The position numbers and the translations under genes were made by a program. A stretch of 64,000 nucleotides of DNA, taken from an uncultured Eubacteriales bacterium (GTDB taxonomy: Bacteria > Bacillota > Clostridia > Christensenellales > CAG-138). Where the stretch lies: NCBI GenBank assembly GCA_902765005.1, contig CACWYB010000002.1:74553-138552 (forward strand), given 5' to 3'. Below are positions 8,996 to 61,844 of this stretch, one piece after another (position 1 is the stretch's first letter; each line of letters opens with the position of its first letter). The notes under the pieces were generated by a model. That model saw only the letters and a list, made by a program, of their open reading frames with translations. It was not told where the DNA came from and made no database searches.

Positions 8996-10231
8996 ATGAT
9001 ATCCATGGGAATCTACGAGGAACTGAAAGAAAGGGGCCTGCTGGCCCAGGTGACCAACGAGGAAGAGATCCGCGACATGGTGAACGCCGGCAAGGCCACC
9101 TTCTATATCGGCTTCGACTGCACGGCGGACAGCCTGACCGCGGGGCATTTCATGGCCCTCACCCTCATGAAGCGGCTGCAGATGGCCGGCAACAAGCCCA
9201 TCGCCCTCATCGGCGGCGGCACTACCATGATCGGCGACCCCTCCGGCCGCACCGACATGCGCAAGATGCTCACCCGGGAGGACATCGACCACAACGCCGC
9301 CTGCTTCAAGCGGCAGATGGAGCGGTTCATCGAGTTCGGCGAGGGCAAGGCCCAGATGGTGAACAACGCGGACTGGCTCATGAACCTGAACTACATCGAG
9401 CTTCTCCGGGAGGTGGGCCCCTGCTTCTCCGTGAACAACATGCTGCGGGCCGAGTGCTACAAGCAGCGCATGGAAAAGGGCCTCTCCTTCCTGGAGTTCA
9501 ACTACATGATCATGCAGAGCTACGACTTCTACTACCTGTTCCAGCACTACGGCTGCAACATGCAGTTCGGCGGGGACGACCAGTGGAGCAACATGCTGGG
9601 CGGCACCGAGCTCATCCGCAAGAAGCTGGGCAAGGACGCCCACGCCATGACCATCACGCTGCTCACCGACTCCCAGGGGCATAAGATGGGCAAGACCGCG
9701 GGCAACGCCGTGTGGCTGGACCCCAACAAGACCAGCCCCTTCGACTTCTACCAGTACTGGCGGAACGTGGACGACGCGGACGTGATGAAGTGTATCCGCA
9801 TGCTCACCTTCCTGTCCCTGGAGACCATCCGGGACATGGACGCCTGGCCCGCCGAGCGGATCAACGAGAAGAAGGAGATCCTGGCCTTCGAGCTCACCAG
9901 CCTGGTCCACGGCAAGGAGGAGGCCGAAAAGGCCCAGTCCGCCGCCCGGGCCCTGTTCTCCGGGGAGGGGGACGAGGCGAGCATGCCCACCACCTGCCTC
10001 TGCTGCGAGCAGGTGCCGGATGAAGGCGTGAACATCATCGACCTACTGGTGTGCTGCGGCCTGGTCAAGAGCAAGGGCGAGGGGCGCCGGCTCATCGAGC
10101 AGGGCGGCGTCAGCCTGAACGGCGAGAAGGTGACCTCCTTCGGGGCCCTGGTGAGCCGGGAGCAGCTGTGCGCCGGCGTGAAGATCAAGAAGGGCAAGAA
10201 GGTCTTCCACAAGGCCACTTTGCAGATGTAA
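8996..10231 (+). CDS. tyrS: Tyrosine--tRNA ligase
   Basis: 411 aa. HIGH-type region (TADSLTAGHF), KMSKS-type motif (KMGKT), and a C-terminal S4-like domain. Preceded by a Tyr T-box. Confidence 0.95.
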   Translation: MISMGIYEELKERGLLAQVTNEEEIRDMVNAGKATFYIGFDCTADSLTAGHFMALTLMKRLQMAGNKPIALIGGGTTMIGDPSGRTDMRKMLTREDIDHNAACFKRQMERFIEFGEGKAQMVNNADWLMNLNYIELLREVGPCFSVNNMLRAECYKQRMEKGLSFLEFNYMIMQSYDFYYLFQHYGCNMQFGGDDQWSNMLGGTELIRKKLGKDAHAMTITLLTDSQGHKMGKTAGNAVWLDPNKTSPFDFYQYWRNVDDADVMKCIRMLTFLSLETIRDMDAWPAERINEKKEILAFELTSLVHGKEEAEKAQSAARALFSGEGDEASMPTTCLCCEQVPDEGVNIIDLLVCCGLVKSKGEGRRLIEQGGVSLNGEKVTSFGALVSREQLCAGVKIKKGKKVFHKATLQM

Positions 10232-37300: not shown

Positions 37301-40300
37301 TCTGTGGATTCGCTGAATATCAGCAACTTCTGGCTGGATCAACACGCTGTCCATCCCGTGATCGATGTGACCATTGACGGTCAGGTGGATTTTCTTTCCT
37401 TAGAAGGAGTAAACAAGGGAACGGCCGTAAAAACCGGCGCAAACGGCAACGTGAGCAGCGGCAATTGGCATTTCTATCTCAACGGATTGGGCCACCTGTC
37501 TTCTCCTCGATGGTTCGATCATTCTATCGGCGCGAACACGCAGATCATGTCCAACGGCAGCTTGCTGCTCATGAGTGTGGACAGAAATGGTGAATATGGT
37601 TCGATTGCATCTCGCGTGGATGAGCTGACCCAGGCGGCTGGCATTGAGGAGGGAAACCAATTCGCTGCCATGGACATTCGGAACGGGGATGTATATCTGG
37701 ATGAGACGGAGCAAGCGCTCGTCAATGAACAAGTGCCGGGGGGAAGAACGGTTACCGAATTCGATGTTCAGGTCACTGCGTATACCGTAGATGACGATGG
37801 AAACCTGACGAGCCAATCCAATGTCTCCAGCTTGACCAATGGCGAAGCCAGCTTTGCTCTGCAGCTGCCGAATGACGATCCGGAGGCAGAGTACAGGATT
37901 GTGCGGATTCACGATGGGGAGGCCCGGGAGGCCCAGATCATGGAAGATGCCGTGATCGAAAACGGCCTTGCCCAGGTGAGCAGCGACCTGTTCTCCAAGT
38001 TCGTGGTGGTGCAAGTGGGCGGGCACGCCTATGTGGCAGAAGTCAACGGCGTGAAATACGAATCCTTTGCCGAGGCGGCGGCCGCAGCGAATAACGGTGA
38101 ACACGTGATCACGCTGCTGGCGGACGTGGAGGAGCTGTACAAGCTGAGCATGGATAACCATACGGTGAAGATCCAGACAAATGGTCATTGGCTGCGGATT
38201 GAAACACCGAAGTGGGGGCGCTTAGATTCGTCTGAAAATGATGGCGTTACCTCCTATCAGCTTATCTACGGGGTTGCCGATCCCACCGAGGACTGGGCCG
38301 GGAGAATCTTTAAGCTTGCGCACTATAATGAAGGATGGTTCATTCAATCGAATGAGAATGAATACTTCCTTGTTACCGCCGAGCAGATGGAAACCATCAT
38401 CAACAGCGGGGTTCGCACGGGAGAGGTGGATGTGTTCGCGGCGCCCGAGGAGAACGATCCTATGTGGGAAATGTTTGGCAGGCATATGGGAACAGGACCC
38501 GATGACCCCAGCATGGTCGACGGCATTGATTTCTATTGTGCGGGAGATGTGACCCTTACCATTCCAGAGGGGGCCTATTACTTTGGCGGATTCACAATCG
38601 AAAACCCGGAAGCAAATATAACCATAAACAGGCACGATACGGGAGTAGCCAACATCTGGGTATACGCAGGCACCCTTACGTATACCGGCAGTGTGGAAGA
38701 CCTGAGACTGTTTGGAAGAGCGTATGATGATCACAGCAAAGATGTGGTCGTTACGGTGAATGGGCACATTCGTACGCTGAACTTTATGGGAGAGAATGCT
38801 CCGGCTAACGATGCGAATCAGGCTCCGTTTAAGGGCAACCTGTATGTGAACGGAACGATTGAGAATGGCTATGAAAAGGGCCAGCAAACCGTTGATTTGA
38901 CCGAGTATAAGATTGGCGTGGTTACCATCGCCATGGCCGTCAAGCAAGTGGAGAATCATACAACAGAAGGGAAAGAACACATTATTGAAAACGGCGTTCT
39001 GAAGGATGAGTATTGCTCAAAGATAATTGAGAATGTAACGAAAGACGACCTTCAGTATTATTTCAATGGGTATGCAGGGAGCAGTATATACCCGAATACC
39101 GATAGAGGAAACTGGACCGTGATTGTCCAGCATGTGGAGACACAGGCTATGTCAGATTCCATCCCGTTAGGGGAGGATTTCTCTGCGGTCGATGTGCAGC
39201 TTACGCCGAAGGAGTATATCTACAATGTGTCCCTGTATGGGAGCAGAGAAGGTGATAGCAGCCTGAATGCCCCCATTACACTTCCGGGAGATTTTAAGGA
39301 CGTTCAGATTCATGATGTGGATTTGATCGTTCCGGAAGGCACCAACTATGATTGGCTGGTGACGCATTCTGACTTTGTAACCGCCGATAGTGGGCTGCCG
39401 TATTCTACCGTGACCGTTTATGGAACGGTGCAAGATCTGAATATTGACGGGCCGTCAGATCATATCACCATTGAGACCAGCGGCAATGGGAAGATACTGA
39501 AAGGCACCTGGACCACCTATAACCTGGGCAATTACTATAACCGTAAGACGCGGTTCTTCACACCGGGTGCGGGCATATTGTTCACAAACGGTTTGTTGCA
39601 AGTATTGAGCTATGATAGCCCCGACATGTCCGATCTGGGCGCCATTATGCCCAGCAGCGCCACGCTGACGGCAGCCACAGAGAATGTGGCCCAGAATCAG
39701 GCGACCTATATGGATATCACCTCGAGCAGCGTAGAGGAGCTGTCCAGCCAGGAAATGACCGCTTTGGAAGGGCTGGGCATCGACCAGAATCAGTTGGCAG
39801 CCGGGTTCCAGGTGGAGGTGGCGAAGCTGACCTTTGAGGATGATGGAACCATCACCGGCGAGGAGATAACTGAGCTGACCAGCGAGGTGCCCATCACTCT
39901 GGAGCTGCCGGACGACGAGAACGAATACCAGATCATCCGCCTCCATGAAGGGGAAAGCGGCATGAGCGCGGATGCTCTCGGCGAGCCGACGACAGGGTCC
40001 GTGGTCACAGTGAGTAGCGACCTGTTCTCCAAGTTCGTGGTGGTCAACACGAAAGCCCCCAGCAGGGAGTACACGATCCGGTTTGTGGATGAAGACGGCA
40101 CGGAGCTGCAGAGCAGCAAAGTGGCTCAGGGTGAGCTGCCTGTGTACACGGGTGAAACACCGACTAAGGCGATGGATGAACAGTTCATCTATACCTTTGC
40201 CGGATGGACGCCGGAGATCGTGGCTGCCACAGAGGATGCAACGTATACGGCAACCTATAGCAGTGCACGGATAACTTGCACGGTGACATTCAATTCAAAT

Positions 40301-41353
40301 GGAGGAACGTCAGTTGAAGCTATAACACTGACAAAAGGGACTGCCGCAGCAGAACCTGCAGAACCGACAAGAGAAGGATATTATTTCGTTGGATGGTATG
40401 TTGAAGGCGAAGAGTCATCCTTTGATTTTGACACGATCATTGTGGAGGATTTGACTTTGACAGCGAAATGGGCAAGGGTTGCCAAGTACTCCGCCACCTT
40501 GACATTGAAAGACAATATCAATATCAACTTCTATGTCAAAGATATTGAGGAAGAGGATAAACAGTGGTATACGGTCAAATGGACCTTTGATGGAAAGGAG
40601 CTTGAGAAAGAGCTAAAGGGTGTTGATCGAGAAGAGGATGGACGATATAAGATCGTTCTTGCAGGAACATACTCCTACCAGATGACCTTGCCAGTGCATA
40701 TCATGGTTTACTGCAATGATGTGCTTGTAAAAGAGGTCGAATCCTATTCAGTACAAACGTATTTCTTGAATATGCTGAATAAGAGCTCAACGGATGCAAA
40801 GACAAAAGCACTTTGCAGAGCGGGGTTGGACTATGGTGCCAATGCGCAATTGTTCTTTGACGGAAAGACCTATGGGGGAGGAATCCCATACGCTTGTGAT
40901 GCGGGGAACCTTGCAAATCGTTCCACAAATCCGAGCAATACCATCACTGCAACGAAGCCAAGCAATGCTGCAAGCAGAGAAGGAGATTTGAACGGGACTG
41001 GAATCAGCAAACTTACGGCTTCTCTGATTCTGGGAACGGAAACCACAATCAAACTTTATATAACGTATGAAGGTGACATTGGTGATCTGACCATCACTTG
41101 TGCCGGAAGGAGCATTACACAGCCGGTGAAAGAAGCAGATGGAAGATACTCCGTTTCAATCCCCGGGATCCGGTCCTTTGAGCTTTGTAAGGATTATGTC
41201 ATTTCCATTGTCAAAGGGACACAAACAATTAAAGTTACCTATTCTGCATATGCGTACGCAGCAAAGAATTGGGATAGTTCAGATAGCAAATTGAAGAACC
41301 TGTGCAGAGCGCTGGTTGCATATGGAGATGTTGCAAAGGAAATATGGGGCTAA
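28400..41353 (+). CDS. Giant (4317 aa) secreted mosaic surface protein: acidic Glu/Pro/Thr/Ala repeats, BspA-type LRRs, Cys-rich motifs, internalin-type LRRs, Flg_new repeats and three large unknown modules
   Basis: Single uninterrupted ORF. Signal peptide [25 protein letters not shown]. See the domain sub-features. No LPXTG, SLH, choline-binding or C-terminal TM anchor is visible. Confidence 0.9.
   Translation: [4317 protein letters not shown]
29375..29776 (+). repeat. Tandem duplication of a 201-bp (67-aa) acidic coding unit
   Basis: gagcctgcggaggaaac(a/g)cccgc(c/a)gaagaccctgc... recurs at 29375 and 29576 with near identity ([12 protein letters not shown](V/A)EPEAT(Q/P)[24 protein letters not shown]...). 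Confidence 0.75.
30550..31880 (+). other. BspA-type leucine-rich repeat block (low-GC segment)
   Basis: About 15 repeats of the pattern IP.SVTSIG..AF..C..L.S. (e.g. [38 protein letters not shown]). A second short block lies at ~32740-33060. Confidence 0.75.
33611..33812 (+). other. Flg_new / Listeria-Bacteroides repeat
   Basis: [46 protein letters not shown]...DAVLHTNW. Confidence 0.65.
33975..34240 (+). other. Internalin-type 22-residue LRR block
   Basis: [79 protein letters not shown]. Confidence 0.75.
34540..40050 (+). repeat. Three divergent ~570-650-aa intragenic modules of unknown fold
   Basis: Shared landmarks in the same order. First, PYLGD(V/L)(F/Y)V(S/T)G(T/R)IANGE, with [15 protein letters not shown] in copy 3. 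Then (F/I)(T/A)L(E/Q)LP(D/N)D...(Y)..(F/I)R(L/I)H(E/D)... Each module ends in SSDLFSKFV(M/V)V, at nt ~36277, 37981 and 40015. Confidence 0.7.
40066..40472 (+). other. Two Flg_new / Listeria-Bacteroides repeats
   Basis: [50 protein letters not shown] and [45 protein letters not shown]...LTLTAKW. Confidence 0.75.
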
Positions 41354-41389
41354 TGAAAAGGTTTATTATATGAGAAAGGAGGAGAAAAA

Positions 41390-41488
41390 ATGAAAGAGTA
41401 TGAAGCGTTGGAGCTTGAAGTGATCAGATTTGATACTGAAGATGTGATCACCGCAAGTCAGGGCGAGACCCCGGAAGACGAACTGTAA
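41390..41488 (+). CDS. Unannotated 32-aa acidic peptide (candidate RiPP precursor): MKEYEALELEVIRFDTEDVITASQGETPEDEL
   Basis: Not in the ORF track because it is below the size cutoff. ATG at 41390 is preceded by agaaaGGAGGagaaaaa (GGAGG 7 nt upstream); TAA at 41486. Followed by a perfect hairpin and then by PqqD/kinase/peptidase/ABC genes. Confidence 0.55.
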   Translation: MKEYEALELEVIRFDTEDVITASQGETPEDEL

Positions 41489-41495
41489 TGGTTGA

Positions 41496-41526
41496 GTATG
41501 AGACGGGTCTTTGACCCGTCTCATAC
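41496..41526 (+). terminator. Perfect 14-bp stem-loop right after the peptide ORF (partial terminator / transcript-stabilising hairpin)
   Basis: gtatgagacgggtc-ttt-gacccgtctcatac. The downstream U-tract is weak (gtattg), so read-through into the operon is expected. Confidence 0.5.
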
Positions 41527-41580
41527 GTATTGAGAACTGAACAGCAGCGTTTCTGTTCTGAGGAAATTTGACGGAAAAGA

Positions 41581-42321
41581 ATGGAACATAACGGTATATA
41601 TCGTTTTGCAAATATATCGGTGCAGGTAGTCTCCTTGTTCCCTTACGCCCAGAAGATGTGTGAGGCCTATCGGTGCCAGGGAGCTCCTGAGCTGACGATT
41701 GCCACCACGCAAAAGGACATTGACTTTGAGCGGCGGAGGGCAAAGGAGGTCGCCAGGAAGGAAGGGCGGCCGGAGCCGGACCATGCCGATGGGTATTTGG
41801 AGACCCTGGCGGTCTATCGGAAGATCGCGGAGAAGATGCCTTTTTACGACAGGATGCTGATGCATGGCTCCTGCGTGGCGGTGGATGGGGCAGCGTATCT
41901 GTTCATCGCCAGGAGCGGCACGGGCAAGAGCACCCACACCCGGCTGTGGCGCAAGCTGCTGGGGGACAGGGCGGTGATGGTCAATGACGATAAGCCCCTG
42001 GTCCAGGTGGCGGAGGGAAAGGCCATCATCTATGGCACGCCCTGGGACGGAAAGCATCGGCTGAGCAGCAACGTGGCTGTGCCGCTGCAAGCCGCCTGCA
42101 TCCTGGAGCGGGCAGAGGAAAACAGCATTCGCCCGCTGATCCGGGAGGAAGCGCTGCCCATGCTGCTGCAGCAAAGCTATCGACCCTTCGACCCGGAGGC
42201 TCTCGCGAAGACGGTGGCGCTGGTGGACCGGTTGGCCGGGGCGGTGAGGCTCTATCGGCTGGGCTGCAATATGAATATAGGGGCGGCTGAGCTGTCGTAT
42301 ACCACAATGAAGGAAGGATAG
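41581..42321 (+). CDS. HPr-kinase/phosphorylase C-terminal-domain-like protein (RiPP-associated kinase type)
   Basis: 246 aa. MLMHGSCVAVDGAAYLFIARSGTGKSTHTRLW...VMVNDD mirrors the HprK core (HG..V...G.G.L..G.SG.GKS......L......L..DD). Confidence 0.75.
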   Translation: MEHNGIYRFANISVQVVSLFPYAQKMCEAYRCQGAPELTIATTQKDIDFERRRAKEVARKEGRPEPDHADGYLETLAVYRKIAEKMPFYDRMLMHGSCVAVDGAAYLFIARSGTGKSTHTRLWRKLLGDRAVMVNDDKPLVQVAEGKAIIYGTPWDGKHRLSSNVAVPLQAACILERAEENSIRPLIREEALPMLLQQSYRPFDPEALAKTVALVDRLAGAVRLYRLGCNMNIGAAELSYTTMKEG

Positions 42322-42325
42322 AACC

Positions 42326-42586
42326 ATGAAACTGAAGAAAGAGTTTATCACCCATATCACCGGGGAGGAGGCGCTGCTGGTGCCCACCGGCGCGGCGAGC
42401 TTTTCCGGCCTGGTGAAGGGAAACAAGACCCTGGGCGCCATCCTGGAGCTGCTGAAAACGGAAACAACGGAGCAGCAGATCGTGTCCGCCATGTGTGCTC
42501 GGTTCAACGGAGCTGAGGAGACGATTGCCAAGGATGTGAAACGGGCGCTTGCGGAGCTGCGCAAAATCGGGGCGCTGGATGAGTAA
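42326..42586 (+). CDS. PqqD-family protein (RiPP recognition element, lasso B1-like)
   Basis: 86 aa. ...EEALLVPTGAASFSGLVKGNKTLGAILELLKTETTEQQIVSAMCARFNGAEETIAKDVKRALAELRKIGALDE fits the PqqD winged-helix pattern. Confidence 0.8.
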   Translation: MKLKKEFITHITGEEALLVPTGAASFSGLVKGNKTLGAILELLKTETTEQQIVSAMCARFNGAEETIAKDVKRALAELRKIGALDE

Positions 42587-43031
42587 GGGTCTCTCTTACG
42601 AAGAATATCTGGAACAAAACGAAACGCTCACCTACACGAATGTGGGTGTGAGCATGCTGCCGCTGCTTCGGCAGGGGAAGGATTTGTTCACCGTTCGAAG
42701 AAAGGGCGAGGAACGGTGCCGGGCGGGAGATGTGGTCCTGTATCGGCGGCCGCCGGATCAGTATGTGCTGCATCGGGTCATCGAGGTGAAGCCGGATGGA
42801 TATGTGATCCTGGGAGACAACTGCGTAGCCAGGGAATACGGCATTCGGGACGCCGATATCCTGGGGGTCATGACGGGCTTTGTGCGGGACGGCAAAGCGC
42901 ACAGCGTATGCGAAGCTGGTTACAGACTATATACTTTTTTATGGCTTCACACCATTGGACCGCGGGTGTTTGCAAAACGAGCAAGGTTGAAATTGGCCAG
43001 GCTATGGCATCGGATCAGACATGAAGGATAG
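42579..43031 (+). CDS. S24/S26-family peptidase, ER/SipW-type (Ser-His) signal-peptidase-like
   Basis: I take the start as the ATG at 42579 (8-nt overlap with the PqqD gene). Ser box GVSMLPLL, GDVVLYRR, a His box YVLHRVIEV where bacterial SPase I has K-R, and ILGDNC. Confidence 0.7.
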   Translation: MSKGLSYEEYLEQNETLTYTNVGVSMLPLLRQGKDLFTVRRKGEERCRAGDVVLYRRPPDQYVLHRVIEVKPDGYVILGDNCVAREYGIRDADILGVMTGFVRDGKAHSVCEAGYRLYTFLWLHTIGPRVFAKRARLKLARLWHRIRHEG

Positions 43032-44730
43032 CGCGGTAAAGTGGCTGTATGCCGTGCCGGGCGGAAAGCGGCTGTATATCGTTTTGTTGGCGGCGGCCCA
43101 GGCGATCCACGGCGCCTCAGGGGTGCTGTATGCCCTGCTGCTGCGAAACATTGTGGATGCGGCTTCCGCAAAAAACGGCCCCGCATTCTGGCAGGGGATG
43201 GCGCTCATCGTCCTGCTGGTGGCCGGGCAGCTGGGGCTCCGGACACTGATTCGATTCTTGACGGAGCTTTCCAAAGCCACATTGGAGAACAGGTTTAAGG
43301 CGCGGTTGCTGGATGTACTGCTGAAGAAGGAGTACATGCGCATCAGCGCTCTGCATTCGGCGGAGTGGATGAATCGGCTGACCAACGACACGGTGGTGGT
43401 GGCCAACGGCTATGTGGACATACTGCCGGGGTTGGTGGGCATGGTCGTGAAGCTGATCAGCGCCCTGGTGATGATCGTGGTCATGGAGCCGCGCTTTGCC
43501 GCGGTCATGATCCCCTGCGGGCTGCTGCTGGTGTTCTTTACCTGGCTGTTTCGCAAGACGCTCAAGCGCCTGCATCGAAACATACAGGAAGCGGACGGTC
43601 GGGTGAGGATCTTTTTGCAGGAGCGGATCGGCAGTCTGCTGATGATCCATTCCTTTGGGGCGGAACAGCAAAGCATGGCAGAGGCAGAGGAGAAGCTGAA
43701 GGAGCATAAGGCGGCTCGCATGCGCCGAAACTGGTTTTCCAACCTGTGCAACGTTGGCTTTGGCGCCGCCATGAACGGCATGTATTTATTGGGTGTGGGC
43801 TGGTGCGGATATGGCATACTGACGGGAACCATCACCTTCGGCACCCTGACTGCCATCACGCAGCTCATTTCGCAGATTCAGGCGCCGTTTGCGAACATCT
43901 CCGGGTATTTGCCTCGCTATTACGCCATGCTTGCCAGCGCCGAGCGGCTGATGGAGGCGGAGCACTTCCCCGAGGGGCCGCAGGAGGCCCTGTGTCTGCC
44001 TGCGGTGGCTGAGTTTTATGAAAAGAAACTGGCCGCCTTTGGGCTGAAGGACGCAAGCTTCATCTACTATCCCGCTACAGAGCGCGTGGACGCCCTCATA
44101 AAGGAGAGCATGCCCGTTGTGCTTTCAAACCTTTCGCTGGAGATCCGCAAGGGAGAATATGTGGCGTTCACGGGCCAAAGCGGCTGCGGCAAGTCCACGG
44201 TACTGAAGCTGCTGATGTGCGTGTACGCCCCTGATACGGGGACGCGGTATTACAAGGATCAGGACGGCAGCCGGGGAGAGCTCTCCTCGGCCTATCGGTG
44301 TCTGTTTGCCTATGTACCCCAGGGAAATCAGCTGATGAGCGGTACCATCCGGCAGGTGGTAAGCTTTGCCGATCCGCAGGCCGCAGCGGATGAAGAAAAA
44401 CTATGGCTGGCGCTGAAGATTGCCTGCGCGGATGATTTTGTGCGGGAGCTGGAGCAGGGGCTGGACACCCTTCTGGGCGAGAGAGGGACGGGCTTATCCG
44501 AGGGCCAGATGCAGCGGCTGGCGATTGCCCGGGCCATTTTCTCCGAAAGCCCTATCCTGCTGCTGGATGAAGCCACCAGCGCCCTGGATGAGGAGACGGA
44601 GAAGCGGTTGCTGAGCCACCTGCGCCGGTTGACCGACCGGACGGTGATCACGGTGACCCATCGGCCGGCGGTGCTGTCGATCTGCGACAGGGTGCTGCAG
44701 TTTACGGAAAGCGGGGTGAAGGAAGCATGA
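43021..44730 (+). CDS. ABC exporter, fused transmembrane + ATP-binding domains (type I exporter half-transporter)
   Basis: 569 aa. Six-TM N-terminal domain, Walker A GQSGCGKST, signature LSEGQMQRLAIARA, Walker B ILLLDEATSALD. Overlaps the peptidase gene by 11 nt. Confidence 0.9.
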   Translation: MKDSAVKWLYAVPGGKRLYIVLLAAAQAIHGASGVLYALLLRNIVDAASAKNGPAFWQGMALIVLLVAGQLGLRTLIRFLTELSKATLENRFKARLLDVLLKKEYMRISALHSAEWMNRLTNDTVVVANGYVDILPGLVGMVVKLISALVMIVVMEPRFAAVMIPCGLLLVFFTWLFRKTLKRLHRNIQEADGRVRIFLQERIGSLLMIHSFGAEQQSMAEAEEKLKEHKAARMRRNWFSNLCNVGFGAAMNGMYLLGVGWCGYGILTGTITFGTLTAITQLISQIQAPFANISGYLPRYYAMLASAERLMEAEHFPEGPQEALCLPAVAEFYEKKLAAFGLKDASFIYYPATERVDALIKESMPVVLSNLSLEIRKGEYVAFTGQSGCGKSTVLKLLMCVYAPDTGTRYYKDQDGSRGELSSAYRCLFAYVPQGNQLMSGTIRQVVSFADPQAAADEEKLWLALKIACADDFVRELEQGLDTLLGERGTGLSEGQMQRLAIARAIFSESPILLLDEATSALDEETEKRLLSHLRRLTDRTVITVTHRPAVLSICDRVLQFTESGVKEA

Positions 44731-54010: not shown

Positions 54011-54712
54011 CTATCCCCCCAAATACGCCTTCTGCACGGCGGGGCTGCGGCTGAGCTCCTCGCCGGTGCCGGCAAGCACGATCCGCCCGGTCTCCATGAC
54101 CGCGGCCCGGTGGCAGAGCTTCAGGGCCAGGGCCGCGTTCTGCTCCACCAGCAGGATGGTGGTCCCGCTCTCGTTGAGCCGGCGGATGATCTCAAAGATC
54201 TCCGCCACCAGCAGGGGCGAAAGCCCCATGGACGGCTCATCCAGCAGCATCAGCTTGGGCCGGCTCATGAGCGCCCGGCCCATGGCCAGCATCTGCTGCT
54301 CGCCGCCGGAAAGGGTGCCCGCGCTCTGCTTTTTGCGCTCCCTGAGCCGGGGGAAGTAGCGGAACACCTTCTCCATATCGGGGGCAAAATCGTCCTTCCG
54401 CAGGTACGCCCCCATCTCCAGATTCTCCAGCACCGTCAGGCCCGGGAACACCCGCCGTCCCTCCGGCGACTGGGAGATGCCCAGCGCCACCCGGCTTTGG
54501 GGCGTCGTCTTCGTGATCTCCTTTCCCAGAAACCGGATGCTGCCGCTCTGGGCCTTTTTGAGCCCGGAGAGGGTGATGAGCGTGGTGGTCTTGCCGGCGC
54601 CGTTGGCCCCGATGAGGGTCATGATCTCCCCCTCCTCCACGGAGAAGGAGACCCCCTTCAGGGCGCGGATGTTGTCGTAATACACGGTCAGGTCCCTGAC
54701 TTCAAGCATCAT
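54011..54712 (-). CDS. livF: Branched-chain amino-acid ABC transporter ATP-binding protein
   Basis: 233 aa. GANGAGKTT, LSGGEQQMLAMGRAL. Confidence 0.9.
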   Translation of the reverse strand: MMLEVRDLTVYYDNIRALKGVSFSVEEGEIMTLIGANGAGKTTTLITLSGLKKAQSGSIRFLGKEITKTTPQSRVALGISQSPEGRRVFPGLTVLENLEMGAYLRKDDFAPDMEKVFRYFPRLRERKKQSAGTLSGGEQQMLAMGRALMSRPKLMLLDEPSMGLSPLLVAEIFEIIRRLNESGTTILLVEQNAALALKLCHRAAVMETGRIVLAGTGEELSRSPAVQKAYLGG

Positions 54713-55529
54713 GGCCGGCCTCCTCCCCCAGATACGCCTCGATGACCACCGGGTTCGTCTGGATCTCCCGGGGGGTACCCTTGGCGATGATCTTCCCGTA
54801 GTTCAGCACGGCGATGCCCTCGCAGATACCCATGACCAGGTTCATGTCGTGCTCGATGAGCATGATGGCGATGCCGAACTCATCCCGGAGCATGCGGATG
54901 TTGTCCATGAGCTCGTGGGTCTCCGAGGGGTTCATGCCCGCCGCCGGCTCGTCCAGGAGCAACAGCTTCGGCTCCGACGCCAGCGCCCGCACGATCTCCA
55001 GCCGCCGCTGGTCCCCGTAGGGCAGGTTCCCCGCCAGGGCGTTGGCCTTGCCCGCCAGGTTGAAAAGGTCCAGCAGCTCCAGGGCCCGGACGTGCTGCCG
55101 TCGCTCGGTCCGCCACCAGCCCGGGAGCCGGAACATGTCGGTGAGGACCCCGTCCGTGTACCCGTGGTTCATGGCCACCTTCACGTTGTCCTCCACGCTC
55201 ATGCCGGCGAACAGCCGGATGTTCTGGAAGGTCCGGGCGATGCCCAGCCGGTTGAGCTGGTGCATGGACTTGCCCCGGGTGTCCTGGCCGTTGAGCAGGA
55301 TCCGCCCCTGGGTGGGCTTATACACGTTGGTCAACAGGTTGAACACAGTGGTCTTCCCCGCCCCGTTGGGGCCGATGAGCCCGGCGATCTCCGTGCGGCC
55401 GATGAGCAGCGTGAAATCGTCCACCGCCCGGAGCCCCCCGAAGTCCACGCACAGGTGCCGGATATCCAGGATGGGGGGCCTACCCGCGTCCCGCTCGGGG
55501 ATGATGCCCAGGCCGTCCAGGGGGACCAT
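54702..55529 (-). CDS. livG: Branched-chain amino-acid ABC transporter ATP-binding protein
   Basis: I take the start as the ATG at 55529 (GAGGAA upstream). GPNGAGKTT, LPYGDQRRLEIVRAL. Confidence 0.9.
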   Translation of the reverse strand: MVPLDGLGIIPERDAGRPPILDIRHLCVDFGGLRAVDDFTLLIGRTEIAGLIGPNGAGKTTVFNLLTNVYKPTQGRILLNGQDTRGKSMHQLNRLGIARTFQNIRLFAGMSVEDNVKVAMNHGYTDGVLTDMFRLPGWWRTERRQHVRALELLDLFNLAGKANALAGNLPYGDQRRLEIVRALASEPKLLLLDEPAAGMNPSETHELMDNIRMLRDEFGIAIMLIEHDMNLVMGICEGIAVLNYGKIIAKGTPREIQTNPVVIEAYLGEEAGHDA

Positions 55530-55551
55530 GTTGCTGCTCACGTTCCTCAGC

Positions 55552-56565
55552 TTAGGCACGGTCCTCACCTGCCTTCTTCGCCCGGGCAAAGAGCTGCCCG
55601 TTGATGAGCTTTTCCAGTATCCGCGTCAGGGAGAAATCGTACCGCCCCAGCAGCCCCGAGGGCTTGAAGATCATCACCGCGATGAGAAGCAGGGCGTAGA
55701 TCACCATCCTATACTTATTGAAGCTCTGCAGCGCCAGGGGCAGGGCCGTCAGGATGGTGGCGGCGATGACGGACCCGGCCATGGACCCCAAGCCCCCCAA
55801 CACCACCATGACCAGGATGTTCACGCTGGTCATGAAGGTGAAATTCCCGGGGGTCAGAATGCCCGTGTACCCGGCGTAGAGGGCCCCGGCCACCCCGGCG
55901 AAAAAGGCGGAGACCGTGAACGCCAGGACCTTGTAGAAGGTGGTGTTCACGCCGCTGGACTCCGCGGCGATCTCGTTCTCCCGGATGGCCAGGATGGCCC
56001 GGCCGTGGCGGGATTTCATCAGGGTATGGATGAGGGCGCAGGAGAGGATCACCGTGGTGTAGACCACCAGGAAGGAAGAGTGCTTGGGAATGTTCATGAG
56101 CCCGGGGGTGCCGCCGGTGATCCCCGGCAGGTTGATGATGAGCACCCGGATGATCTCCCCGAAGCCCAGGGTGATGATGGCCAGGTAATCCCCCTTGAGC
56201 CGCAGGGCCGGCACGCCGATGACCACGCCGAATACCGCCGCCACCAGGCCCCCCAACAGCAGCCCCAGCACGATGGCCCCGGCGGACCTGGGCATGGCCT
56301 TCCAAAGCAGGGCCGCCCCGTAGCCCCCCACCGCCATGAACCCGGCGTGGCCCAGGGGCAGCTGGCCCAGATACCCGGTGGCCACGTTCAGCGACACGGC
56401 CAAAAGGATGTAGATGCCGATCTGCAATATAACGGCGCTTTGGGCCCGGTTCACGGCCCCGGAGGCGAGCAGGGCGTTGCCCCCCAGGAGAAAGGCCCCC
56501 AGCAGCAGGGTGTTGATGAGATACCGCAGATAGACGGGGATCTGTTTATATCCGTTCATAGGCAC
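55552..56565 (-). CDS. livM: Branched-chain amino-acid ABC transporter permease
   Basis: 337 aa, polytopic, LivM-type (GQLPLGHAGFMAVGGY). Confidence 0.9.
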   Translation of the reverse strand: MPMNGYKQIPVYLRYLINTLLLGAFLLGGNALLASGAVNRAQSAVILQIGIYILLAVSLNVATGYLGQLPLGHAGFMAVGGYGAALLWKAMPRSAGAIVLGLLLGGLVAAVFGVVIGVPALRLKGDYLAIITLGFGEIIRVLIINLPGITGGTPGLMNIPKHSSFLVVYTTVILSCALIHTLMKSRHGRAILAIRENEIAAESSGVNTTFYKVLAFTVSAFFAGVAGALYAGYTGILTPGNFTFMTSVNILVMVVLGGLGSMAGSVIAATILTALPLALQSFNKYRMVIYALLLIAVMIFKPSGLLGRYDFSLTRILEKLINGQLFARAKKAGEDRA

Positions 56566-56566
56566 C

Positions 56567-57445
56567 TCACACCTTCTCCGCCACGCCCCGGCCCAGCAGG
56601 CCCGTGGGCTTGACGAGGAGCACCACTATGAGCACGGCGAAAACCACCGCGTCCGTCCAGGCGGAAAACCCCAGAGCCGTCACCAGCACCTCCGCAAAGC
56701 CGATGGCAAAGCCCCCCACCACCGCCCCGGGGATGGAGCCGATGCCCCCCAGCACCGCCGCCACGAAGGCCTTGAGCCCCAGCAGCGACCCCATGGTGGG
56801 GTTCGCCACGGAATAGCGGCAGCAGTAGAGCACGGAGCCCACGCCGGCCAGGGCCGACCCGATGGCAAAGGTGATGGAGATGACCCGGTTGATGTCGATG
56901 CCCATGAGCTGGGCCGCCCCCGTGTCCTCGGAAACGGCCCGCATAGCCTTGCCCATCCGGGTCTTCTGGATGAGCAGGTGCAGCCCCAGCATGGCCCCCA
57001 CGGAGACCAGGATGGTCACCACCGTGGACAGGCTCAGGGAAAGCCCGCCCAGCTGGATGGCCCGGGCGGGGATGATGGCGGTGCTGGGGTAGGCCCGGGA
57101 GTCCGCCGTGAAAAACAGCTGCACCAGGTTCTGCAGCAGCAGCGACACGCCGATGGCCGTGATGAGAAGCGAGATCCGGGGCGCGGACCGCAAGGGCCGA
57201 TAGGCCACCTTCTCGATGAGCACGCTGATGAGCACGCAGCCCAGAATCGTGATCCCCACCGCCAGGGCGGGGTGGAGGCCGGCGCCGATGGTGAGCAGGG
57301 CGATGTAGGCCCCGATCATGATCACGTCCCCATGGGCGAAGTTCAGCAGGCGAATGATGCCATAGACCATGCTGTAGCCCAGGGCCACCAGGGCGTAGAT
57401 GCTGCCCAGCTGCAGGCCGTTGATACATTGGGATAGAAACAGCAT
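56567..57445 (-). CDS. livH: Branched-chain amino-acid ABC transporter permease
   Basis: 292 aa. QCINGLQLGSIYALVALGYSMVYGIIRLLNFAHGD. Confidence 0.9.
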   Translation of the reverse strand: MLFLSQCINGLQLGSIYALVALGYSMVYGIIRLLNFAHGDVIMIGAYIALLTIGAGLHPALAVGITILGCVLISVLIEKVAYRPLRSAPRISLLITAIGVSLLLQNLVQLFFTADSRAYPSTAIIPARAIQLGGLSLSLSTVVTILVSVGAMLGLHLLIQKTRMGKAMRAVSEDTGAAQLMGIDINRVISITFAIGSALAGVGSVLYCCRYSVANPTMGSLLGLKAFVAAVLGGIGSIPGAVVGGFAIGFAEVLVTALGFSAWTDAVVFAVLIVVLLVKPTGLLGRGVAEKV

Positions 57446-57511
57446 TCCTCTGTCCCCTCAGGCTCCGCAGAGCCTGCCTTCCTACATATTATTATTTAAT
57501 CATTCAATTGC

Positions 57512-57652
57512 GTCAAATCCGGCGACATGCGCGGCGGATTTGACACATTGCAGGTCCCGCCGCCCGGAAAACCGGAGGTTTTTAGGCGGGACCTGGAAGC
57601 GAAACGAAGGTGGAGCCTCAGGCTGTTGAAAACGTAGTTTTCAGCAGCCTGA
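57512..57652 (-). promoter_or_regulatory. Three consecutive stem-loops in the spacer between the binding-protein and permease genes
   Basis: 57618-57652 (16-bp stem, one mismatch), 57552-57594 (aggtcccgcc/ggcgggacct) and 57512-57544 (gtcaaatccg/cggatttgac). Confidence 0.5.
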
Positions 57653-57659
57653 AGTCATA

Positions 57660-58856
57660 TTAGTAGTTGCCCCAGAACTTGGCCGCGCCGTTTTCGAAAG
57701 TGATGATGGCCGCGCTCTTCTGCGGGTTGTTATACTGGTCATAGGCCACGTGGCCGGTGACGCAGTCCATGTCGGTCTCTTTCATGGCCGCAATGATGGC
57801 TTTGCGATATTCATCGCCGGTCTTGCCGGAGGCCTCGGCCTTCTCAATGGCGGCAAAGAGGATCATGGCGGCGTCATAGCCCTGGGCGGCGAACATATTG
57901 GGCGTATCGTTGAATTTGGCGGTATAGTTCTTCACGAAGGTCTGGACCTCCGACCGGGTATCATCCTTGGAATAGCCGGAGCAGTAGTATGCGCCCTCCA
58001 CCAGGCTCGGATCGGAGATGGTATCCAGCACGGAATCCCAGCCGTCGGAGCCCAGCATGGTGGCTTTGGATCCTGCGGCGAAGGCCTGCTGGGCCACCAG
58101 GGCCACCACGTTGTAATAGTCGGGCACGAACAGCACGTCGGGCGCCTTGGCGGCGATATTGGTCAGCTGGGACTGGAAGTCCACGGCCCCGTCGGCGTAG
58201 CTCTCCACGGCCACCACCTCCAGGCCCTTTTCCTTGGCGGTCTCCTGGAAGGACTGGGCGCAGCCGCCGGAATAGTCGGAACCCACGTTATAGAGGACCG
58301 CGGCGGTTTTGGCCTTCAGCTCATCCACGGCGAAGGCGGCCATCTTGCTGCCCTGGAAGGGATCGATGAAGCAGGAGCGGAACATGTTCTCATAGACCTT
58401 GACCACGTTCTGATCCGCATCCAGCTGGCAGGTGACGGCGGCGTTGGTGGCGGAAGCGGTGATCATGGGCATGCCGTCCGCCTGGCTCTCAGCCACCACG
58501 GCGATGGTGGGCGCGGTGGTCACGTCGCCGATGATGGCCACCACGCCCTGATCCACCAGGGAGTTATAGCCCGTAACGGCCTTCACCGGGTCCCCCTCCT
58601 CGTCGTAGGGGATGAGCTCGATCTGCTTGCCGTTGATGCCGCCGTTGGCGTTCAGTTCCTCCACAAACTGGATCACGCCGTTGTTGACCGCGTTGCCGTA
58701 TTCGGCCACCGCCCCGGTGAGCGGCGCCAGCACGCCCACCTTGATGGAAGCGGCCGATGCGGTCTCGGCCGGTTTGCCGCCAGAGCAGGCGGCGAAGCTC
58801 ATAACGAATACCACCGCCAATACGACGGCAGCGATTTTGGTAGCGATGTGTTTCAT
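57660..58856 (-). CDS. Leu/Ile/Val-type (PBP type I) ABC substrate-binding lipoprotein
   Basis: I take the start as the ATG at 58856 (RBS AGGAGGGA). Lipobox SFAACSG. KVGVLAPLTGAVAEYG is typical of LivJ/K-like binders. Confidence 0.85.
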   Translation of the reverse strand: MKHIATKIAAVVLAVVFVMSFAACSGGKPAETASAASIKVGVLAPLTGAVAEYGNAVNNGVIQFVEELNANGGINGKQIELIPYDEEGDPVKAVTGYNSLVDQGVVAIIGDVTTAPTIAVVAESQADGMPMITASATNAAVTCQLDADQNVVKVYENMFRSCFIDPFQGSKMAAFAVDELKAKTAAVLYNVGSDYSGGCAQSFQETAKEKGLEVVAVESYADGAVDFQSQLTNIAAKAPDVLFVPDYYNVVALVAQQAFAAGSKATMLGSDGWDSVLDTISDPSLVEGAYYCSGYSKDDTRSEVQTFVKNYTAKFNDTPNMFAAQGYDAAMILFAAIEKAEASGKTGDEYRKAIIAAMKETDMDCVTGHVAYDQYNNPQKSAAIITFENGAAKFWGNY

Positions 58857-58883
58857 GTGGTTTCCCTCCTTGGCGTTTTGCAT

Positions 58884-58919
58884 ATAAAAAGGCGGTCCCG
58901 CTTTTCTTCGGGGCCGCCG
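58884..58919 (-). terminator. Attenuator terminator in the liv leader
   Basis: Minus-strand RNA ggcggcccc-gaagaaaagc-gggaccgcc (one A-C mismatch) followed by UUUUU. Lies 22 nt after the leader-peptide stop. Confidence 0.55.
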
Positions 58920-58940
58920 TTGCTTTCTTCCGGTACGATC

Positions 58941-59024
58941 CTATGCGTACACGAACGGCAGCCCCCTGCGCAGCAGCAGGACGCTGATTCGTACAACGAT
59001 GATCGCGCAAACCCGGTTGGTCAT
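58941..59024 (-). CDS. Candidate 27-aa leader peptide rich in Ile/Val/Leu: MTNRVCAIIVVRISVLLLRRGLPFVYA
   Basis: Below the ORF-track cutoff. ATG at 59024 with AAAGGAGA 8 nt upstream; TAG at 58941-58943. 12 of 27 codons are I/V/L. Located upstream of the liv operon. Confidence 0.5.
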   Translation of the reverse strand: MTNRVCAIIVVRISVLLLRRGLPFVYA

Positions 59025-59259
59025 GGGCGCCGTCTCCTTTCTGAATAATATATTATATCTTAGATTGGTGGTATACTACCACCGATCCTGGCTCCCGTCA
59101 AGAGGGAATTTGCAATTTTTCGTGCATTTTTCCGGAAAAATCTCCCAGCAGGCGATCAGAAAGGGGAAATAGTCTCTTGAAAAGAGAATTCTGGGCGGGC
59201 AGCCGAGACCGTTGACAGCCGGCCGAAGGTTGGTGTATTCTGCCAGCGGAGGGTATACT

Positions 59260-60027
59260 ATGTCTGAATTCGTCAAGCAATTGCTCATCATCTGCCCGCT
59301 GCTGTTCCTGGCGGGCATGTGCGACGCCATCGCCGGAGGCGGCGGCACCATCAGCCTGCCTGCTTTCATGCTGGCGGGGCTGCCCACCCACTTTGCCCTG
59401 GGCACCAACAAGATGTGCATGTCCATGGGCACCGCCGTCAGCGTGTATCGCTACGGCAAAAGCGGCCGCATCCGCTGGTTCGTGTCCCTGTTCGCCGCGG
59501 CCGGAGCGGTGCTGGGGGCCATGCTGGGGGCCCGGATCGCCCTGCTTCTGGACGATTCCTTCATGCGCTACGTGCTCATGGTCCTGCTGCCCGCCTCCGC
59601 CATCTTCCTGGCTCTGAACCGGAACTTCGGCGCGGAGGGCCGGGAGAAGAGCTTTCCGCCCGCCAAGACCGCCCTGATCTCCTTCCTCTGCGGGGGCGGC
59701 GTGGGCATCTACGACGGGTTCTTCGGCCCCGGCGCCGGCACCTTCTATATCATGGCCCTGTCCGCCGCCTTAGGCCTGGGGCTCACGGAGGCCTCCGCGG
59801 ATTCCAAGGTCATGAACACAGCCTCCAATGTGGGCGCCCTGGTCACCTTCATCCTGGGGGGCGTGGTCCTTTGGAAGCTGGCCATCCCCGGCATCATCTG
59901 CACCATGTCCGGCAACTACGTGGGCTCCAACCTGGCCATCAAAAACGGCTCCAAGTTCGTCCGCCCCGTCATGGCCGTCATGATCGTGCTCCTGTTCGTG
60001 AAAACTATCTATGATCTGGTAGCATGA
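59260..60027 (+). CDS. TauE/SafE (TSUP) family anion exporter
   Basis: I take the start as the ATG at 59260. CDAIAGGGGTISLPAF, with an internal duplicated 4-TM pattern. Confidence 0.85.
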   Translation: MSEFVKQLLIICPLLFLAGMCDAIAGGGGTISLPAFMLAGLPTHFALGTNKMCMSMGTAVSVYRYGKSGRIRWFVSLFAAAGAVLGAMLGARIALLLDDSFMRYVLMVLLPASAIFLALNRNFGAEGREKSFPPAKTALISFLCGGGVGIYDGFFGPGAGTFYIMALSAALGLGLTEASADSKVMNTASNVGALVTFILGGVVLWKLAIPGIICTMSGNYVGSNLAIKNGSKFVRPVMAVMIVLLFVKTIYDLVA

Positions 60028-60142: not shown

Positions 60143-61756
60143 TCAATTCCTCTTGCTCATGATCGCCCTCACCAGGAACAGCGCCCCGATCATCAGCACC
60201 AGGGCCAAGGGCAGGGCGATGATCGCGTTGGGCACGAACCCGGCGAAGAGATACGCCACGAAGCTGACCGCGGCCACAGTCATGGCGTAGGGAAGCTGAG
60301 TGGACACATGGGTCACATGGTCGCACTGGGCGCCGGCGCTGGCCATGATGGTGGTATCCGAGATGGGGGAGCAGTGGTCGCCGCAGACCGCCCCGGCCAT
60401 GCAGGCGGACACGCAAACCACGCCAAGAGGCGCCGCCAGGGGGAACACGCCCAAGGTGATGGGGATCAGAATGCCGAAGGTCCCCCAGCTGGTGCCGGTA
60501 GCGAAGGAAAGCCCCACCGCGATCAAAAACACGATGGCGGGCAGGAACGACTGGAAGGACGTGGCGGAGCTCTTGACCAGGGCCTCCACGAACTGCTTGG
60601 CGCCCAGGCTGTCGGTCATGCCCTTCAGCGTCCAGGCAAAGGTGAGGATCAGGATGGCGGGCACCATGGACTTAAATCCCTCGGGAATGCTGCCCGCGAT
60701 CTCCCGGAAGGGGATCACGCCGCGAATAAGATAATAGATCACCGTGATCACCAGGGCCACCGCCGAGCCCAGCATGAGCCCCACAGACGCGTCAGAATTG
60801 GAGAAGGCTTCCACGAACCCGGCCCCCGCGAAGAAGTCGCCGGAGTAGAGCATGCCGGTGACGCAGGCCACGATCAGCACCAGGATGGGCAGCACAAGAT
60901 CCAGCACCTTCCCCTTTGGGTTAGCGGTCTCATTGGCCGCGTCGGCCATGGCCTTCACGCCGGAGAAGACATCGCCCTTCTCTCGGGCATTGCGCTCATG
61001 CTTTGCCATGGGGCCGTAATCCAGGTTGGTTAGGGCCAGGAAGATCATCATGGCGATGGTGAGGATGGCGTAGAAATTAAAGGGGATGGCCCGGATGAAC
61101 AGGTATAGGCCGTTGCCGTCCTCCACATAGGAGCTCACCGCCGCCGCCCAGGAGGACACCGGCGCGATGATGCACACCGGCGCCGCCGTGGCGTCGATGA
61201 GATAGGCCAGCTTGGCTCGGCTGATGCGGCTCTTGTCGGATACGGGCCGCATGACGGAGCCCACGGTGAGGCAGTTGAAATAATCGTCCACGAAGATGAG
61301 CACGCCCAACGCGATGACGGACAGCTGCGCCCCGGCCCGGGTCTTGATGTGTTCGGCGGCCCAGCGCCCGAAGGCGGCGGACCCGCCCGCTTTGTTCATG
61401 AGGACCACCAGGATGCCCAGGATCACCAGGAAAACCAGGATACCCACATTGTATCCGTCGGCCAGGGACCCGACGAAACCGTCGTTGAAGATGTGTGTCA
61501 GGGTCCCTTCAAAGTTGAAGTTGGCGTACAGCAACCCGCCCACCAGGATGCCCACGAACAGGGAAGTGTACACTTCCTTCGTGATCAACGCCAGACCGAT
61601 GGCGATGATGGCCGGTAGCAGCGACCAGAAGGTCTGATAGAAACGGGAGGGAACCTCTGCGTCCCCCTCGCCCTCAGCAAAGGCGGCGACGGTGGTCAAA
61701 AGCAGAAGGATGAGCAGAACGGACAGCAGGGACAGGATTCTTTTTGTGTTTCTCAT
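60143..61756 (-). CDS. NhaC-family Na+/H+ antiporter-like transporter (lysine-riboswitch controlled)
   Basis: I take the start as the ATG at 61756 (RBS AAAGGAG). Polytopic, with FWSLLPAIIAIGLALITKEVYTSLFVGILVGG. Confidence 0.85.
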   Translation of the reverse strand: MRNTKRILSLLSVLLILLLLTTVAAFAEGEGDAEVPSRFYQTFWSLLPAIIAIGLALITKEVYTSLFVGILVGGLLYANFNFEGTLTHIFNDGFVGSLADGYNVGILVFLVILGILVVLMNKAGGSAAFGRWAAEHIKTRAGAQLSVIALGVLIFVDDYFNCLTVGSVMRPVSDKSRISRAKLAYLIDATAAPVCIIAPVSSWAAAVSSYVEDGNGLYLFIRAIPFNFYAILTIAMMIFLALTNLDYGPMAKHERNAREKGDVFSGVKAMADAANETANPKGKVLDLVLPILVLIVACVTGMLYSGDFFAGAGFVEAFSNSDASVGLMLGSAVALVITVIYYLIRGVIPFREIAGSIPEGFKSMVPAILILTFAWTLKGMTDSLGAKQFVEALVKSSATSFQSFLPAIVFLIAVGLSFATGTSWGTFGILIPITLGVFPLAAPLGVVCVSACMAGAVCGDHCSPISDTTIMASAGAQCDHVTHVSTQLPYAMTVAAVSFVAYLFAGFVPNAIIALPLALVLMIGALFLVRAIMSKRN

Positions 61757-61844
61757 GGGAAGACTCCTTTCGCGCAACGGCAAAAATGCAATCAACTGCG
61801 GCATCATGACCCGTCATAACGTCACAGTTGGAAAGATTCCCCCT

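Follow-up and report, generated by a model that had tools for sequence, protein, structure and literature searches.

An open reading frame (ORF) of 27 codons, rich in isoleucine, valine and leucine, precedes a livKHMGF-type operon on the minus strand of a 64,000-nucleotide (nt) stretch of DNA from an uncultured Eubacteriales bacterium (contig CACWYB010000002.1 of assembly GCA_902765005.1; the whole stretch is hereafter called the window). We conclude that this leader is probably a functional ribosome-mediated, that is, leader-peptide, transcription attenuator, which would couple expression of a LIV-type (leucine, isoleucine, valine) ATP-binding cassette (ABC) importer for branched-chain amino acids (BCAA) to the supply of charged tRNA-Ile, tRNA-Val and tRNA-Leu. 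The parts of the element, their conservation, two mutually exclusive pairings and the dependence of these pairings on ribosome position were found by sequence analysis and computation.

Anatomy and conservation of the leader

The leader comprises the following features, in window coordinates.

59073..59101, minus strand: promoter, with the -35 element TTGACG (59101-59096), a 17-nt spacer and the extended -10 element TGgTAGTAT (59081-59073)
59025..59066, minus strand: leader 5' untranslated region, AU-rich, with a conserved AUAUAGUAUAU-like block and the Shine-Dalgarno (SD) sequence
59040-59033, minus strand: SD sequence AAAGGAGA, 8 nt 5' of the ATG
58941..59024, minus strand: leader ORF, ATG...TAG, 27 codons plus TAG, reading MTNRVCAIIVVRISVLLLRRGLPFVYA; also present in the mechanical ORF list
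58971..59003, minus strand: codons 8-18 of the leader ORF (I I V V R I S V L L L), the putative regulatory run
58950..58993, minus strand: intra-ORF hairpin between segment 1 and segment 2, with its 5' half at 58993-58976, its apex at the Leu codons and its 3' half at 58969-58950
58954..58965, minus strand: segment 2, the antiterminator 5' arm GGGGCUGCCGUU, codons 20-24, invariant in all short-type leaders
58933..58950, minus strand: stop-codon hairpin GUACG-cauaggau-CGUAC, with the leader UAG in its loop, nested inside the antiterminator
58910..58921, minus strand: segment 3, the antiterminator 3' arm AACGGCGGCCCC, overlapping the terminator 5' arm; the 15-mer GAAAGCAACGGCGGC is invariant
58886..58918, minus strand: intrinsic terminator, GGCGGCCCCG-aagaaaag-CGGGACCGCC, with its stem at 58918-58891, an 8-nt loop and U5 at 58890-58886

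An earlier note, made from the letters of this DNA, had described the ORF with an SD sequence 8 nt upstream, a hairpin and U5 terminator 22 nt past its stop, and a 12-nt complementarity with one G-U pair between codons 20-24 (segment 2) and the terminator 5' arm (segment 3); re-reading of the minus strand recovered all three. The note had also placed 12 Ile/Val/Leu codons at codons 5-18. The number was right, but only 10 of the 12 lie there, the others being codons 22 and 25. Ile, Val and Leu take up 12 of the 27 leader codons and 9 of the 11 in codons 8-18, compared with about 23% of residues in long ORFs. When all 342 small ORFs of the window (20-45 amino acids, six frames) were inspected, two contained 9 Ile/Val/Leu in 11 residues, and of these two the leader ORF alone carries an SD sequence.

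A promoter scan of the minus strand within 58500-59500 gave TTGACG-17-TGgTAGTAT as the sole sigma-70-like site and revealed no further promoter between the leader ORF and livK. This promoter, TTGACGGG...GGTGGTAGTAT, is kept in the short-type relatives aligned over the promoter region, and its position predicts a transcription start near 59066, upstream of the mini-ORF. The terminator stem, in which 9 of 10 positions pair, has a folding energy of -18.1 kcal/mol; because of its one C.A mismatch, a simple hairpin scan flagged the terminator on the plus strand only.

Related loci were retrieved via the neighboring LivK protein and not via the leader, and therefore the leader-conservation result was not biased by the retrieval. 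A genome scan yielded three loci and a metagenome contig scan five, and most of the diversity came from protein-based look-ups; in total, the sample comprised 9 distinct short-type leader ORFs and 10 distinct sequences of the antiterminator module. Every retrieved locus with a LivK at 71-98% identity carries the same short-type leader, which mostly adjoins TauE and, in one sub-clade, holA. The mini-ORF and the pairing, whose conservation the earlier note had proposed to check, were kept throughout the 9 distinct short-type leaders. Among these leaders, neither the segment GGGGGCTGCCGT nor the 15-mer GAAAGCAACGGCGGC, which occurs a single time in the window, varies, and the SD sequence is kept together with its spacing of 6-10 nt to the start codon.

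The substitutions and indels follow the reading frame. The start codon is ATG or GTG at a fixed position in the 9 distinct leaders, that of locus L019 lying exactly one codon upstream, and the stop is fixed in position with TAG or TAA as its identity. All three indels within the leader ORF are 3 nt long, giving ORFs of 25 to 28 codons across relatives; non-coding spacers and loops have indels of various lengths, including 1, 2, 4 and 5 nt. N-terminal leader residues vary freely (T/R/N/K, N/R/T/I, C/H/R). Alignment columns 9-11, 13 and 15-18, which have the same numbers as the window codons, hold exclusively I, V or L in the 9 distinct leaders, with 17 distinct codon/column combinations in these core columns. 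At column 13, a change from ATC to CTG loses two pairs of the intra-ORF hairpin and retains a branched-chain codon. This codon pattern fits a regulatory leader, in which composition and not peptide sequence would matter, rather than a functional peptide or a purely structural RNA, and it suggests that the leader ORF is actually translated.

Codons 11-12 (58989-58994) read GTA CGA. The Arg codon CGA does not vary, and most leaders have GTA for the Val before it. In the long ORFs of the window both codons are rare, CGA accounting for 8% of Arg codons and GTA for 13% of Val codons. Slow decoding at these two codons may help to place the ribosome; alternatively, pairing in the intra-ORF hairpin may be the sole constraint on them.

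Competing RNA structures and ribosome position

Folding for alternative structures, another check suggested in the earlier note, gave two mutually exclusive states of nearly equal energy, and the state of minimum free energy (MFE) differs among relatives. State A consists of the intra-ORF hairpin (58993-58950, fold energy -24.5 kcal/mol), the small stop-codon-loop hairpin and the terminator. State B consists of the antiterminator formed by segments 2 and 3, which encloses the stop-codon hairpin. The RNAalifold consensus picked the antiterminator unprompted. In the window, the antiterminator duplex reached -26.6 kcal/mol versus -15.2 +/- 2.6 kcal/mol for dinucleotide shuffles, none of 300 shuffles being as good (z = -4.35), and in all nine lineages z ranged from -3.1 to -4.8 and no more than one of 300 shuffles was as good.

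The helices differ in how they are conserved. In the antiterminator helix, which is essentially invariant, 99% of alignment cells are paired. The intra-ORF hairpin is paired in 95% of cells across 12 sequences, versus 37-48% in slid controls, and is a candidate anti-antiterminator or pause hairpin. The terminator is paired in 92% of cells and, at one pair, shows a true compensatory change from CG to UA, seen in 4 sequences. The stop-codon hairpin occurs in all 10 distinct sequences, with 85% of cells paired, and is built from differing stem bases, including GUACG/CGUAC, UACGC/GCGUA, CACGCG/CGCGUG and CGCG/CGCG; three of its five pairs have changed on both sides. The MFE of the whole leader compared with shuffles gave z = -0.93 and was uninformative, which is to be expected of a bistable RNA.

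The effect of ribosome position was then modeled by footprint masking, in which nucleotides from A-site -15 to +12 were forced unpaired and pair probabilities were computed for each A-site codon; the footprint size is assumed and the models are thermodynamic. In the window leader, the antiterminator probability was 0.8-0.9 for A-site codons 8-16, except for 0.43 at codon 11, whereas the terminator probability was 0.81-0.87 from codon 17 through the stop, placing the predicted switch point between codons 16 and 17. We judged a truncated-transcript model more appropriate, in which the RNA ends just 5' of the terminator 3' arm, the kinetically relevant moment. In this model, 8 of the 9 lineages form the antiterminator as long as the A-site has not moved beyond the first Leu of the Leu run, and are unable to form it afterwards. 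In these models, such A-site-dependent switching is the behavior required of an attenuator. The ribosome-position logic proposed in the earlier note, with a stalled ribosome leading to the antiterminator and an advanced one to the terminator, thus agrees with conservation, duplex thermodynamics, RNAalifold and footprint masking.

The attenuator would then work as follows. Transcription would begin at about 59066, and the 27-codon leader would be translated as RNA polymerase moves on. When BCAA are plentiful, the ribosome would clear codons 8-18 and sit at codons 17 to stop, covering segment 2 and the stop-codon hairpin; segment 3 would then pair with segment 4 to form the terminator, and transcription would stop at U5 ahead of livK. 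When any one of the three amino acids is scarce, we infer that the ribosome would stall with its A-site at about codons 8-16, melting the hairpin between segments 1 and 2 and leaving segment 2 free. Free segment 2 would capture the emerging segment 3 in a 12-14 bp antiterminator around the stop-codon hairpin, which would block the terminator and thereby permit BCAA-dependent read-through into livKHMGF.

RNAalifold in addition paired the leader SD region (GAAAGGAGAcGGcgCCC, 59025-59045) with the terminator 3' arm and U-tract (GGGaCCGCCUUUUU, 58881-58900), a pairing that stabilizes the antiterminated state, and in a simulation a ribosome on the start codon flipped the equilibrium to the terminator. 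This pairing may represent feedback on leader translation or a by-product of the anti-SD-like sequence.

When the window leader and six related loci were compared with Rfam, neither the gathering nor permissive thresholds gave a relevant match. The best match in the leader (58800-59250, E <= 10) had E = 0.0035, lay on the wrong strand and scored 22 bits against a 65-bit threshold. Identity with a T-box (RF00230) or a known riboswitch was rejected, no T-box match being present in 58800-59250 at E <= 10.

Long-ORF relatives and rival explanations

LivK orthologues at 67-72% identity, including that of a Candidatus Pelethousia metagenome-assembled genome (Eubacteriales incertae sedis), are also preceded by a promoter, an SD sequence, an Ile/Leu/Val-rich ORF and a terminator 5' of livK. 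These leader ORFs are long, 70-77 codons according to gene callers and up to 100-116 depending on the start chosen. The following are annotated as hypothetical small proteins.

L012, 1180-1413: long Ile/Leu/Val-rich ORF
L013, 1173-1406: long Ile/Leu/Val-rich ORF
L026, 1501-1725: long Ile/Leu/Val-rich ORF
L029, 1007-1237: long Ile/Leu/Val-rich ORF
L020, 1197-1409: long Ile/Leu/Val-rich ORF
L015, 1012-1362: long Ile/Leu/Val-rich ORF

The family of 74-77-amino-acid ORFs is narrow, with 8 clusters that invariably adjoin livK. The long ORFs have a conserved Ala/Gly/Ser/Cys-rich N-terminal half and a transmembrane (TM)-like, Ile/Leu/Val/Ser-rich C-terminal half, which in the 74-77-amino-acid family is variable in order and length and keeps its composition. 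The nucleotide motif CCGUCUGAGAAC is conserved in long-type leaders irrespective of reading frame (the frame differs in L015). Near the end of the long ORFs, the nucleotide motif CCGTCTGAGAAC is conserved and lies in a different reading frame in L015. Short and long ORFs share a TTGTACG..TCAGC stretch and an 'IVR' motif, as judged by eye only. Homology between the two could not be demonstrated (BLASTP gave no alignment between short and long leader ORFs), and an origin of the short ORF by truncation of a long one is therefore conjectural. It is possible, and no more than a tentative proposal, that the window element marks one extreme of a rapidly evolving family of leader ORFs that sense BCAA on orthologous liv operons of uncultured gut and rumen Clostridia, ranging from 25-28 to 70-77 or more codons. 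Should the long forms, too, act as attenuators, they would rank among the longest amino-acid-sensing leader peptides known and possibly have a dual function, as membrane micro-protein and sensor, or use a different switch.

At LivK of 65% identity, the loci L017 and L018 (1171-1500) have a different leader of about 330 nt with a good promoter (TTGACT..TGTATAAT) and a LysR-family gene upstream; no I/V/L ORF, no obvious terminator and no Rfam match were found in this leader. At these loci, the same operon may be regulated in another way.

Several observations weigh against an attenuator in the window. The phylogenetic sample is narrow, with 9-10 distinct sequences from a single clade of uncultured Clostridia. 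The antiterminator helix, with its invariant arms, is without covariation support, the changes in the hairpin between segments 1 and 2 are one-sided only, and shuffle-based covariation statistics are modest (e.g., 26/500 and 31/500). Support from covariation is accordingly moderate and limited to two helices, and the case for the antiterminator draws on invariance, thermodynamics and geometry. Without a ribosome, the equilibrium favors the antiterminator in several leaders, including that of the window, and the hairpin between segments 1 and 2 does not prevail over the antiterminator at equilibrium in most leaders; basal termination would therefore hinge on kinetics, with segments 1 and 2 pairing first, or on translation. 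In the full-length equilibrium model, the strong-terminator leaders L005, L001 and L002 never switch, and Leu codons 17-18 of the window fall beyond the predicted switch point. Among long-type leaders, neither L012 nor L020 gave a significant result in the duplex test, L013 (20/300) and L015 (7/300) were marginal, and RNAalifold on four long-type sequences gave an extended terminator only and no convincing antiterminator.

Four other explanations were weighed against the attenuator. The leader is unlikely to be an RNA-only switch, namely, a riboswitch or a protein- or tRNA-bound leader whose ligand or factor acts on the invariant blocks GGGGGCUGCCGU and GAAAGCAACGGCGGC, with the ORF incidental. 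Such a switch would accommodate the invariance of both arms and the GAAAGC block in spite of a LivK divergence to 71% identity, the lack of an assigned pairing partner for GAAAGC and the near-isoenergetic conformers, and other cis-acting RNAs do precede LIV binding-protein genes, such as the Streptomyces livJ motif (PMC11109978). However, it leaves the SD sequence, the ATG/GTG start, the frame-keeping indels and the fixed stop unexplained, and core substitutions remain I/V/L even where RNA pairs break. Moreover, no complex conserved aptamer-like fold was seen (whole-leader MFE z = -0.93), nor any Rfam match, T-box included. The ORF could instead be a gene for a small hydrophobic protein, e.g., a transporter-associated membrane micro-protein, followed by a leaky terminator, with liv expressed by constitutive read-through. 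The 70-77-amino-acid annotated ORFs of distant relatives, with their TM-like stretches, conserved N-terminal half and constant position beside livK, speak for this. Yet a membrane helix would need more than the hydrophobic run of the window type offers, namely 4 plus 6 residues with the invariant Arg between them and RR after them, the N-terminal residues are unconstrained, and a strong antiterminator overlapping the 3' end of the ORF would have no purpose; we regard this explanation as improbable.

The probability is lower still for nascent-peptide arrest or a general translation-stress sensor of the erm/cat/hflX type, in which the peptide or antibiotics, and not BCAA-tRNA, would set the stall. 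The operon downstream encodes a BCAA importer and not a resistance or ribosome-rescue gene, and a stall modeled at codons 19-27 leads to termination, not induction. The invariant rare CGA codon (8% of Arg codons) and the conserved ..RRGLPF would suit an arrest peptide, as would the P-x-R-L-R-T ending of long-type ORFs, R-L-R being a motif known from antibiotic-responsive leaders (PMC8632094); the conserved C-terminal residues coincide, however, with an antiterminator arm, and RNA constraint suffices to explain them. A chance ORF beside an ordinary hairpin is effectively refuted. Although short ORFs are common at 62% GC (342 of 20-45 amino acids in the window) and the whole-leader folding energy is unremarkable, all elements are kept across relatives and the pairing statistics are strong.

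Genomic context, known systems and significance

The genes downstream of the leader are listed below.

58871-58865, minus strand: SD sequence AAGGAGG of livK
57660..58856, minus strand: livK/livJ-type substrate-binding lipoprotein gene, the first gene predicted to be regulated (Pfam Peripla_BP_6, E = 7e-58)
56567-57445, minus strand: livH (Pfam BPD_transp_2)
55552-56565, minus strand: livM (Pfam BPD_transp_2)
54702-55589, minus strand: livG (Pfam ABC_tran and BCA_ABC_TP_C)
54011-54712, minus strand: livF (Pfam ABC_tran)

By its domains, a Peripla_BP_6 protein with two permeases and two ABC ATPases, this operon is classed as a livK-H-M-G-F-type importer. The upstream neighbor is a TauE-family gene (59260-60027, plus strand) at a distance of about 400 nt from livK. 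Because this gene is divergent, the gap is a divergent promoter region and the terminator cannot belong to the upstream gene. The DNA that separates the liv promoter from the divergent TauE promoter contains, at 59172-59188, the dyad TCTCTT-N4-AGAGAC ('ttctcttttcaagagact'), which is kept in L001, L002, L005, L009, L011 and L024; it is a candidate transcription-factor operator, which would add a second regulatory layer. An A-rich conserved block, AAAATGCACGAAAAATTGCAAA, adjoins the -35 element. The CodY box AATTTTCWGAAAATT had no match anywhere in the window with up to 3 mismatches allowed. In the 215-nt gap between livK and livH (57445-57660), three strong hairpins were observed (e.g., CAGGCTGCTGAAAACTACGTTTTCAACAGCCTG; GGTCCCGCC...GGCGGGACC), probably a partial terminator or stabilizer yielding an excess of binding protein over membrane components.

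Other regulatory RNAs and ORFs were found elsewhere in the window. Its only T-box leader (8729-8949, plus strand, 126 bits) precedes a tyrS-like class I W/Y tRNA-synthetase gene (8996-10231, plus strand), and therefore the same genome would use both T-box and leader-peptide attenuation. A lysine riboswitch (RF00168, 61846-62024, minus strand, 82.7 bits) precedes a Na_H_antiporter-family, NhaC-like gene (60143-61807, minus strand), presumably a lysine-related transporter. The other small ORF with 9 I/V/L in 11 residues, MTLRLQHTIQRNNILLLSVLQVLLRQSLLSVL at 40320-40418 on the minus strand, is without an SD sequence; the stretch around it, about 36000-44000, has a low GC content of 0.49-0.52 versus about 0.62 elsewhere and may be horizontally acquired DNA.

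Leader-peptide attenuation has been known for about 45 years; for operons of this kind, regulation by T-boxes, CodY or Lrp is usually assumed. The livK motif of Pseudomonas is a cis-acting RNA 5' of a LIV binding-protein gene and a riboswitch candidate without a leader ORF. In composition, the window leader is closest to E. coli IlvL, and its proposed mechanism is like that of the ilv/leu/trp/his leader-peptide attenuators. The E. coli and Salmonella ilvGMEDA (ilvL) and ilvBN leaders likewise encode a multivalent Ile/Val/Leu-rich peptide of similar size and composition, IlvL (MTALLRVISLVVISVVVIIIPPCGAALGRGKA) having 15 BCAA residues in 32 amino acids (PMC6123439) and the window peptide 12 in 27. 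They, too, have terminator and antiterminator hairpins that exclude each other, the signal being the position of the ribosome, but the E. coli attenuators govern biosynthesis in a Proteobacterium, whereas the window leader precedes an uptake ABC transporter in Clostridia. The resemblance to the ilvGMEDA leader proposed in the earlier note thus holds for composition and not for descent: homology to IlvL was rejected, since BLASTP gave no alignment and RF02744 matches ilvL (E = 2e-48) and not the window leader.

The view of the earlier note that Firmicutes usually use T-boxes or CodY for these genes is dated, since ribosome-mediated BCAA attenuation of ilv-leu has been experimentally established in Staphylococcus aureus (PMC5794164) and Listeria (PMC5864092; reviewed in PMC6123439). 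BCAA attenuation has further been predicted in Lactococcus, Streptococcus and Corynebacterium (PMC6123439, PMC10272879, PMC11109978), and a His leader peptide in bacilli (PMC2965389). The Leu-rich S. aureus and BCAA-rich Listeria attenuators would share phylum, mechanism class and BCAA response with the window leader; they control biosynthetic ilv-leu alongside CodY, whereas here livKHMGF lies downstream, a CodY consensus is absent and there is no sequence relationship. The Corynebacterium ilvB upstream ORF, or ilvB-II motif (PMC10272879; uORFC-75-1, PMC11109978), likewise found by comparative genomics, also has a conserved I/L/V-enriched ORF, a P1 antiterminator and a P2 intrinsic terminator, but it belongs to Actinobacteria, a biosynthetic gene and another sequence. 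The Streptomyces livJ motif (PMC11109978) shares the context, the 5' leader of a gene of the LIV binding-protein type, and differs in being a riboswitch candidate without a leader ORF, for which SD sequestration is proposed. T-box leaders on Firmicute amino-acid transporter genes (PMC2494555) have the same signal, tRNA charging, and the same terminator/antiterminator output; unlike a leader peptide, a T-box senses uncharged tRNA directly, without translation. According to Naville and Gautheret, very few ABC transporters were known to be under attenuation control (PMC2965389). In a literature search, with incomplete coverage and so compatible with a prior description, no LIV-type importer was found to be described as controlled by a BCAA leader-peptide attenuator; the transporter-linked RNAs that did turn up, the livJ motif and T-boxes among them, have another mode of action. 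The principle is not new, being already documented in Firmicutes; what is new, and still makes the element noteworthy, is that the predicted target is an ABC importer and that the lineage is one of uncultured Clostridia.

A leader-peptide attenuator on a BCAA importer overturns no concept. The element would offer a compact part of about 180 nt from gut anaerobes, predicted to be BCAA responsive with a clear switch point. For annotation, small proteins that are called as hypothetical in metagenome-assembled genomes and lie 5' of liv operons are probably regulatory leaders. Classical leader-peptide attenuation would be extended to amino-acid uptake in Clostridia, in which starvation for Ile, Val or Leu would induce import and not synthesis.

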